From Candidatus Bathyarchaeota archaeon (lineage in GTDB: Archaea > Thermoproteota > Bathyarchaeia > 40CM-2-53-6): a stretch of DNA of 64,000 bases. Under the pieces are notes generated by a model. The model saw only the letters and a list, made by a program, of their open reading frames with translations. It made no database searches and had not been told where the DNA came from. Location of the stretch: the NCBI GenBank assembly GCA_963706285.1, contig CAVPLU010000004.1, positions 288,001 to 352,000 of the forward strand. The letters run 5' to 3'. A program made the position numbers and the translations under genes. Positions 25,731 through 60,319 of this stretch are shown here, one piece after another. Positions within the stretch are counted from its first letter, which is position 1; each line of letters starts with the position of its first letter.

Positions 25731-25893
25731 TGGCGCCGCCGGAAGGATTCGAACCTCTAGTCGCGCCCGCGCGCTTCGACCAACGGGTCGCTGCCATGTG
25801 GCTAACAGCTTCAGCCTCAATCTTCTCGATTGAGTCCGCTGCTCTGCCACTGAGCTATCGTCTATGATCAAAGGATTGATCGTAAACGGCGGC
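25731..25893 (-). tRNA. tRNA-Asn(GTT) with four introns (8/9, 30/31, 37/38, 50/51)
   Basis: Removing 25885-25857, 25835-25810, 25802-25789 and 25775-25757 gives GCCGCCGTAGCTCAGTGGCAGAGCAGCGGGCTGTTAACCCGTTGGTCGAAGGTTCGAATCCTTCCGGCGGCGCCA, a 75-nt cloverleaf with encoded CCA. Confidence 0.92.
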
Positions 25894-25932
25894 TCTATTC
25901 GGCGGCACCGATTTCACGGAGCCTCAAGCCGC

Positions 25933-25940
25933 TTATTTAA
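25933..25940 (-). promoter_or_regulatory. TATA box of tRNA-Asn
   Basis: TTAAATAA on the minus strand, about 40 nt upstream of G1. Confidence 0.6.
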
Positions 25941-60134: not shown

Positions 60135-60194
60135 GCGTCAGAGCTTGGGGCTACATAGCTAAATAGTTGCGAACGTCGGTCTAGGAATGGGCCC

Positions 60195-60319
60195 GGGCCC
60201 GTAAGGAAATGAGAATCCCGGGAAGCTCAGCCAGGTTGGAGCGACCGTAACACGTCCATGGGACAAAGTTGTCGAAGCTCATAACCGGTTGGTCGGGCGT
60301 TCAAATCGCCCCGGGCCCA
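60195..60319 (+). tRNA. tRNA-Ile2(CAT) with two introns (9/10, 30/31)
   Basis: Removing 60204-60224 and 60248-60276 gives GGGCCCGTAGCTCAGCCAGGTTGGAGCGACCGGCTCATAACCGGTTGGTCGGGCGTTCAAATCGCCCCGGGCCCA. The GGGCCC acceptor favours Ile2 over Met (inference). TAAATA at 60160-60165. Confidence 0.9.

Follow-up and report, generated by a model that had tools for sequence, protein, structure and literature searches.

In a 64,000-nt stretch of the genome of a Candidatus Bathyarchaeota archaeon (contig CAVPLU010000004.1, positions 288,001 to 352,000; the window, whose numbering is used below unless another contig is named), we examined a locus that a sequence-only reading had proposed to be a tRNA-Asn gene with four introns and a 7-nt micro-exon carrying the anticodon. 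We conclude that it is a real, conserved four-intron tRNA-Asn gene of the archaeal protein-spliced kind, that is, dependent on bulge-helix-bulge (BHB) motifs and on EndA. The introns, of 29, 26, 14 and 19 nt at sites 8/9, 30/31, 37/38 and 50/51, make up 88 of the 163 nt of the gene. The best explanation as a whole, to which we give a probability of about 0.85, is that this four-intron protein-spliced gene is the sole detectable tRNA-Asn gene of the genome, and that its precursor would follow a pathway assisted by the leader, where a second copy of the 5' acceptor strand is found.

When read on the gene strand, the reverse complement of positions 25731-25893 opened with a 7-base G+C-rich strand and a T, and ended with the complementary strand, a G and CCA. 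The five exons, once joined, gave a 75-nt product; ARAGORN identified it as tRNA-Asn(gtt), spanning positions 1-75, and each of the four stems was paired. The anticodon GUU lay in a 7-nt loop with U33 and A37. We then compared this product with uninterrupted tRNA-Asn genes of Bathyarchaeia. It was identical at 71 of 76 positions to one such gene from another genome (L142), which is contiguous over all four junctions and in which one difference from the spliced product is a compensated T-stem pair. Against six uninterrupted genes, between 64 and 71 positions were identical in alignments of 76-77. The ARAGORN call and the match to L142 together bear out the exon and intron sizes that had been proposed from the letters alone.

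The exon-1/exon-2 junction was also evaluated independently of any splice motif, by searching it as one contiguous word in 301 genomes of the class. This word was present in many genomes outside the host's order and in few within it. We retrieved 14 of the matching loci, and 13 of these were tRNA-Asn genes lacking the 8/9 intron (nine of them fully uninterrupted); L148, which is not a tRNA, was dropped from the counts.

To describe the splice motifs, we used a BHB geometry with a 4-bp central helix, 3-nt bulges holding the cut sites, an outer helix (h) and an inner helix (h'). The central helix consists of the four exon bases before the 5' bulge and the four intron bases before the 3' bulge. 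The same definition is found in the methods of a recent preprint (bioRxiv 10.64898/2026.10.13.758758). As a control on the junctions, the motif was scored over 121 offset combinations per intron, and a null fraction was taken as the share of 200,000 random genome positions with an equal or better motif score. The proposed register scored best at each of the four introns, with a single tie, at intron 1. Intron 4 had a complete central helix (GGTC/GACT, 4/4 with one G.U), h of 3 and an inner G+C helix of 4 (null fraction 0.00006), while intron 2 formed a full hBHBh' motif (central CAGC/GCTG 4/4, h 2, h' 7; null fraction 0.00015). At intron 1, the central helix CGCC/GACG was paired at 3/4 positions, with one C.A mismatch; h was 4 bp, including the leader bases -2 and -1, and h' was 2, the inner helix running for 2 bp, a mismatch and then 5 bp (null fraction 0.0024). 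Intron 3 had a 4/4 central helix (CTGT/GCAG) with h of 1 and h' of 1 (null fraction 0.018), and its motif became 4/7/1 (central/outer/inner) after removal of intron 2. An outer or inner helix of at least two pairs was present at introns 1, 2 and 4 in the primary transcript, and at intron 3 only after intron 2 had been removed. The three central helices listed in the sequence-only reading (those of introns 2, 3 and 4) were all present in register. A blind pipeline was also run over the whole genome, with stepwise removal of motifs and a ranking of the spliced forms on both cloverleaf and motif quality; at this locus it arrived at GTT as the anticodon and at the same four introns. No Rfam family of self-splicing group I or group II introns was found in the window, and the inserts are only 14-29 nt long.

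We also observed a short repeat at intron 2. The last six bases of this intron (GCTGAA, 25810-25815) repeat the start of the micro-exon (GCTG..., 25803-25809), and CAGC at positions 25-28 is able to pair with GCTG either at the intron end or in the micro-exon. The repeat may be a trace of the origin of intron 2.

The locus was next followed in 40 relatives, where all nine other genomes of the host's own genus, and most of those from its family and order, had it. The final set comprised 37 orthologues; L038 was dropped as a different tRNA (anticodon CTT), and three relatives (G013, G027 and G040) gave no usable Asn match. Four introns were present in 12 orthologues, three in 19 and two in 6, with the four-intron genes occurring in the own genus (7/10) and in genera g2 (4/6) and g3 (1/3). 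The intron sites were invariant, and how often each is occupied is given in the table. Where an intron is missing, the flanking exons meet: exons 4 and 5 were contiguous at the predicted point in the three own-genus genomes without intron 4, and the micro-exon was contiguous with exon 4 in the 6 orthologues without intron 3, in agreement with the micro-exon as proposed. The exons were near-invariant among the orthologues, and the intron loops were freely divergent. The first inner pair of intron 1 was paired in 36/37 orthologues with 3 pair types, and the second in 35/37 with 5 pair types; the central helix of this intron had 4/4 pairs in 14/37. In intron 2 the first three inner pairs were paired in 37/37, with 2-3 pair types each, and the fourth inner pair of intron 4 was C-G in 10 genes and T-A in 2. 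Leader base -1 was paired in 37/37 and base -2 in 31/37. Judged by this pattern of substitution, the splice helices are maintained through compensatory pair changes.

A whole-genome check for a further tRNA-Asn, which the sequence-only reading had named as a test, found none besides the four-intron locus: the host genome held no other strong match, and the pipeline no other credible GTT candidate. We provisionally take it to be the only Asn tRNA gene of the genome, and it is probably essential.

The host genome assembly has 2.13 Mb in 21 contigs with 51% G+C, and is 89% complete with 7.5% contamination. The closest matches to its ribosomal protein S8e came almost all from Bathyarchaeia/Bathyarchaeota genomes of soil and peat. 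By this protein, the host is a member of Bathyarchaeia and lies outside Thermoproteales, so that the Thermoproteales, with which the earlier reading had compared the gene, are not its own group. As for the splicing machinery, two endonuclease paralogues were found, at C12:149004-149501 and C6:75200-75649 of the host genome. One, of 186 aa, matches chain 2cv8_A (E = 4e-40) as well as 3p1z_B, 3ajv_B and 2zyz_B, all of which we take to be catalytic subunits of crenarchaeal heterotetramers; the other (174 aa) is divergent. These predicted proteins would fit an alpha2-beta2 endonuclease, a form that has been tied to lineages rich in non-canonical and multiple introns (PMC4090602). An RtcB ligase gene and a full-length archaeal RNase P RNA (183.7 bits) are also present in the genome. 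The RtcB matches lie in two adjacent open frames outside the window (C4:105729-107043, minus strand), a frame of 281 aa holding profile positions 1-243 and one of 226 aa holding 236-426. Possible causes are a frameshift, a sequencing error and a split gene.

The earlier reading had further argued that the introns must leave in order, since the motifs of introns 2 and 3 both need C32-U33. In the outer helix of the intron-2 motif, C32 is paired with G24 and U33 with A23; in the intron-3 motif, C32 and U33 are the first two bases of the central helix. As both motifs have these bases in common, the two are mutually exclusive. The number of outer pairs at intron 3 rises from 1 in the primary transcript to 7 with intron 2 out, as the anticodon stem then serves as the outer helix. 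For this helix to form, intron 2 must first have left and its ends been joined, and ordered splicing, with intron 2 leaving before intron 3, is thus predicted from the geometry, which agreed with the earlier argument.

We next turned to the leader copy of the 5' acceptor strand. The copy was present in all 37 Asn orthologues, exact in 34 and with the last base changed in 3 (the copies of L030 and L037 were counted directly from their sequences). Its start lies between 12 and 22 bases upstream of the mature 5' end, next to a spacer of variable length and sequence. As a background, a 6/7 match was found in 117 of 3092 control segments of 32 nt from the same loci (3.8%). Within the host genome, all five loci with the first intron after base 7-9, namely Asn, Pro(GGG), Met(CAT), Arg(CCG) and Cys(GCA), have a copy of their own acceptor sequence, which is different in each; the copy was found in 0/15 of the other resolved host loci.

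The same association was seen among the relatives. Under one criterion, the Asn copy was present in 37/37 genes with an acceptor-proximal intron versus 1/13 without. For Met(CAT), the figures were 7/7 (own genus only) versus 0/10, with loci L162, L165 and L166 unparsed and outside the count, and for Arg(CCG) they were 14/14 versus 0/5, with L187-L191, L194 and L198-L200 likewise unparsed and outside it. Taken together, 58/58 genes with such an intron had the copy versus 1/28 without, these being counts from related genomes and not independent ones. The three tRNAs that show the association differ in their phylogenetic distribution, and in family f10 the Arg intron and the copy are found together in three genera and are both missing from one genus.

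Folding of the precursors was also considered. In the minimum-energy fold of the 176-nt Asn precursor (-82.5 kcal/mol, z = -6.0), the 3' acceptor strand is paired with the copy, and positions 10-13 are paired with leader bases -2 and -1 and with G1 and C2. Without the leader, it is the true strand that pairs with the 3' end (-73.3 kcal/mol). The fold of the Met precursor likewise has the copy on the 3' strand, with the true strand forming the central helix and 5' bulge of the motif. The TATA-like box of the Asn gene (see the table) falls within the range of 30-49 nt upstream of the mature 5' end given for tRNA promoters of Thermofilum pendens (PMC3218864); by this analogy, the leader copy is probably transcribed from this candidate promoter. 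Most likely, the copy keeps the 3' acceptor strand engaged and thereby leaves the true strand free for the acceptor-proximal splice motif. Since the central helix of an acceptor-proximal intron is built from the acceptor strand, the copy would hold the 3' strand until splicing is done. The wider proposal, that the copy is a dedicated cis-acting folding helper needed by any BHB intron right behind the acceptor strand (7/8 to 9/10), is one that we would back at even odds.

The proposed pathway would run as follows. Transcription from the TATA-like box would give a leader of about 13 or more bases that contains the spare 5' acceptor strand. The spare strand would pair with the 3' acceptor strand, and the true 5' strand, thereby freed, would pair with the 3' part of intron 1 and the D-stem strand to give the 8/9 splice motif. 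Introns 1, 2 and 4 could be cleaved by the endonuclease while still in the primary transcript, and intron 3 only once intron 2 is out and its ends are joined. RtcB would join the exons, the true acceptor stem would displace the leader helix, and RNase P would trim the leader, the CCA being already encoded.

Table 1. Coordinates of the four-intron tRNA-Asn gene and its leader (window numbering).
Feature	Position	Strand	Description
tRNA-Asn(GUU) gene	25731..25893	minus (read 25893->25731)	163 nt, 5 exons and 4 introns
TATA-like octamer TTAAATAA (gene strand)	25933..25940	minus	candidate promoter, 47 to 40 nt upstream of mature 5' end
Leader copy of 5' acceptor strand, GCCGCCG	25900..25906	minus	13 to 7 nt upstream of mature 5' end
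Leader bases -2, -1 (GA)	25894..25895	minus	pair with C13 and U12, lengthening outer helix of intron 1
Exon 1	25886..25893	minus	8 nt; 5' acceptor strand and U8; joined to exon 2 in uninterrupted relatives
Intron 1	25857..25885	minus	29 nt, site 8/9; kept in 37/37 orthologues
Exon 2	25836..25856	minus	21 nt; positions 9-30, D arm and 5' side of anticodon stem
Intron 2	25810..25835	minus	26 nt, site 30/31; kept in 37/37 orthologues
Exon 3 (micro-exon)	25803..25809	minus	7 nt; positions 31-37 with anticodon GTT
Intron 3	25789..25802	minus	14 nt, canonical site 37/38; in 31/37 orthologues
Exon 4	25776..25788	minus	13 nt; positions 38-50
Intron 4	25757..25775	minus	19 nt, site 50/51 in T stem; in 12/37 orthologues
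Exon 5	25731..25756	minus	26 nt; positions 51-76: T loop, 3' acceptor strand, discriminator G, CCA
CCA end, encoded	25733-25731	minus	read from the sequence

Several points weigh against this picture. With respect to the gene itself, the central helix of intron 1 has the C.A mismatch here and in 23/37 orthologues, and intron 3 has one inner pair only. The status of the gene as the only one for Asn is provisional because of the incompleteness and contamination of the genome. No read or contig with a spliced junction or an intermediate was found; two 151-nt contigs, from one run of uncertain kind, partly span the locus and are unspliced and without joints, and they are uninformative on expression. 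With respect to the leader, the 58 genes come from related genomes, as stated above, and the acceptor sequence is invariant in the Asn orthologues, so that no covariation is possible within the set. The fold of the Arg(CCG) precursor gives the leader model no support (z = -1.3). For the Asn precursor as a whole, the minimum-energy fold lacks the BHB register at introns 1 and 2: a 3x3 internal loop takes its place at the first, and at the second CAGC pairs with GCUG of exon 3. A fold forced to motifs 1, 2 and 4 and the leader helix lies 28.6 kcal/mol above the minimum (Turner parameters). Finally, the one exception among the genes without an 8/9 intron, L147 (G253:C41), has two overlapping 6/7 matches about 20-23 bases upstream; these could be chance (given the background rate) or a decaying copy left by intron loss.

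The explanation that survives best beside ours concerns the leader alone. The copy might have no function, being either a leftover of the event that created the acceptor-proximal intron (e.g. a local duplication) or simply tolerated. Copy and intron always co-occur, as expected from one mutational event, and the Arg precursor fold is of no help to a helper role. However, the copy has stayed exact in 34/37 Asn orthologues across the order while the spacer and the introns diverged, and the variants (in 3 Asn and 5 Arg genes) differ at the last base only, so that pairing with the 3' strand still extends over six contiguous positions. Nor does a target-site duplication of the intron fit, as the two copies flank the short spacer and not the intron. 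We consider a functionless copy unlikely, although it deserves more weight than any of the alternatives that follow.

That the locus is a decaying pseudogene or a mis-assembly, with inserts that are junk never removed, would agree with its not being called by the standard finders. We regard this as very improbable: orthologues occur in 37 separately assembled genomes with near-invariant exons and variable introns, compensatory changes have preserved the splice motifs, the genome yielded no second Asn gene, and splicing gives a clean cloverleaf with the close match to an uninterrupted relative described above.

We also considered the upstream copy as the true first exon, either with a 42-nt first intron reaching to exon 2 or in a leaderless gene. 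Here, the upstream copy joined to the last intron base (T) and exon 2 gives the same mature sequence, and one variant of the pipeline did begin at the upstream copy. This junction, when checked by hand, has no in-register central helix. Moreover, all four bases (T, G, A and C) occur just before exon 2 among the orthologues, so that U8 would be lost, and in the Arg and Met genes only the downstream copy precedes the conserved T-A at positions 8 and 9. There is little to recommend such an exon, and the downstream copy is kept as exon 1. Least probable of all is an alternative splicing in which the 3' end of intron 2 (GCTGAA) serves as the anticodon exon of a GAA tRNA: a relaxed-motif path with cloverleaf-only ranking did give the loop CTGAAGA with a good cloverleaf score, but this form needs weaker motifs, the motif-weighted ranking selects GTT, GCTGAA is exactly the central-helix strand and 3' bulge of the intron-2 motif, and the two-intron orthologues have the GTT exon contiguous with exon 4.

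The gene was invisible to the conventional tools, as the sequence-only reading had expected. ARAGORN found no tRNA in the window, and with its intron search over the genome none of its 26 calls, 25 of which had an "intron", was for Asn. Rfam at gathering thresholds gave nothing in the window, and its tRNA model reached 13.2 bits at the locus against a cut-off of 29. The multi-intron tRNA genes of Thermoproteales (such as Pyrobaculum calidifontis tRNA-Glu(UUC) and P. islandicum tRNA-Pro(UGG)) were likewise missed by conventional finders (PMC4390854, PMC4033280).

Four introns had also been called exceptional. The number does exceed the maximum of three introns per archaeal tRNA gene given in reviews (PMC4390854, PMC4033280), but this part of the earlier claim cannot be kept in full, as four introns are present in 12 of the 37 orthologues, the host genome has a five-intron candidate, and Asgard archaea reach five. 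For these archaea, 228 introns were reported in three genomes in 2024 (PMC11291895), and some Asgard families have 2.2 intervening sequences per gene, with up to five in one (bioRxiv 10.64898/2026.10.13.758758, October 2026). Since the Asgard genes reach five, four introns are no longer without precedent in archaea; the count of four is notable, not unique. Full-text literature searches for tRNA introns of Bathyarchaeia or for four-intron tRNAs gave no Bathyarchaeia paper.

The gene resembles several known systems in part. It is like those of the alpha2-beta2 lineages in that its host has two endonuclease paralogues (PMC4090602), and it differs from the Thermoproteales genes in having four introns rather than at most three and in its Bathyarchaeia host. 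The accessible parts of the Thermoproteales sources do not mention a leader copy of the acceptor strand (PMC4090602, PMC4033280, PMC3218864). In some Asgard archaea nearly every tRNA gene is interrupted, many have several introns, and the D arm is often affected (PMC11291895; bioRxiv 10.64898/2026.10.13.758758), which is similar to what we observed; the 2.2 intervening sequences per gene reported there compare with about 2.2 in the host (43-45 predicted introns in 20 resolved loci). Asgard archaea belong to another phylum, and neither Bathyarchaeia nor the word 'leader' is mentioned in the accessible text of the preprint (bioRxiv 10.64898/2026.10.13.758758). The nuclear tRNAs of Cyanidioschyzon merolae have BHB-type introns at ectopic sites, up to three per gene, and reverse transcription PCR shows that the introns of the D and T regions leave before the 37/38 intron (PMC3728597). 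C. merolae is a eukaryote (a red alga) with at most three introns, and its processing is known from experiment, whereas that of the Asn gene is read from sequence. In split and permuted tRNAs (Nanoarchaeum equitans, C. merolae, Thermofilum pendens), sequence from outside pairs with the precursor to form the endonuclease substrate (PMC4090602, PMC4033280). The flanks of those genes form the BHB motif themselves and are cut by the endonuclease; here, the copy is proposed to sit on the 3' acceptor strand and to be removed by RNase P. We found no publication on a leader copy of the acceptor strand, although subscription papers and supplements may hold more. It is the leader copy linked to acceptor-proximal introns, then, that goes beyond the published picture.

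The other tRNA loci of the host were also found to be interrupted. None of the 20 loci resolved by the motif-based pipeline was an uninterrupted gene, these loci being fewer than half of the expected tRNA genes and only Asn having been checked against a compact relative. One intron was predicted in six loci, two in eight, three to four in four, four in one and five in one; a doubtful locus (C16:55978) was left out of the 20. The stretches of all 16 Rfam tRNA hits above the cut-off exceed the 71-position model or only partly cover it. Some loci appeared to be duplicated: the Met and Phe calls at C4:222230/230573 are seen again at C20:1503/9022, and both C1 and C6 have an Arg(TCG). This would fit assembly redundancy or the 7.5% contamination.

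Two of these loci are described here in their own right. A tRNA-Met(CAT) gene lies in the window at 60195-60319 (plus strand), with two predicted introns, one after base 9 (21 nt) and one in the anticodon arm (29 nt). Directly before its 5' end, at 60189-60194 (plus strand), lie six bases that copy its acceptor strand. Both intron and copy were present in all 7 own-genus genomes found and absent from ten orthologues of other families, and the triplet after the discriminator is TCA here and CCA in some relatives. A candidate tRNA-Pro(GGG) lies outside the window, at C3:165487-165727 (minus strand) of the host. It spans 241 nt with five predicted introns (32, 64, 20, 19 and 19 nt) and its leader copy departs from the acceptor strand at one base; as the variable region is too long, at least one boundary is provisional. 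If confirmed, this candidate would exceed the Asn gene in intron number.

The finding bears first on how these genomes are read. As the only detectable Asn tRNA gene of the organism is invisible to ARAGORN and Rfam, Bathyarchaeia genomes would appear to lack tRNAs. Heavy interruption of tRNA genes, seen so far in Thermoproteales and some Asgard archaea, extends to an order of soil Bathyarchaeia. With four introns whose motifs have overlapping needs, the gene is a natural test case for RNA processing that is ordered and dependent on refolding. The puzzle of how a splice motif is built from the acceptor strand in spite of a competing G+C helix of seven pairs has now become testable, since the leader copy offers a concrete mechanism. 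If the proposed role of the leader copy is true, it would amount to a general rule of archaeal pre-tRNA design that has so far gone unpublished. In that case it would account for the ability of introns to colonize the junction between the acceptor and D stems, and it would predict an obligatory order of splicing, strand exchange and RNase P cleavage.

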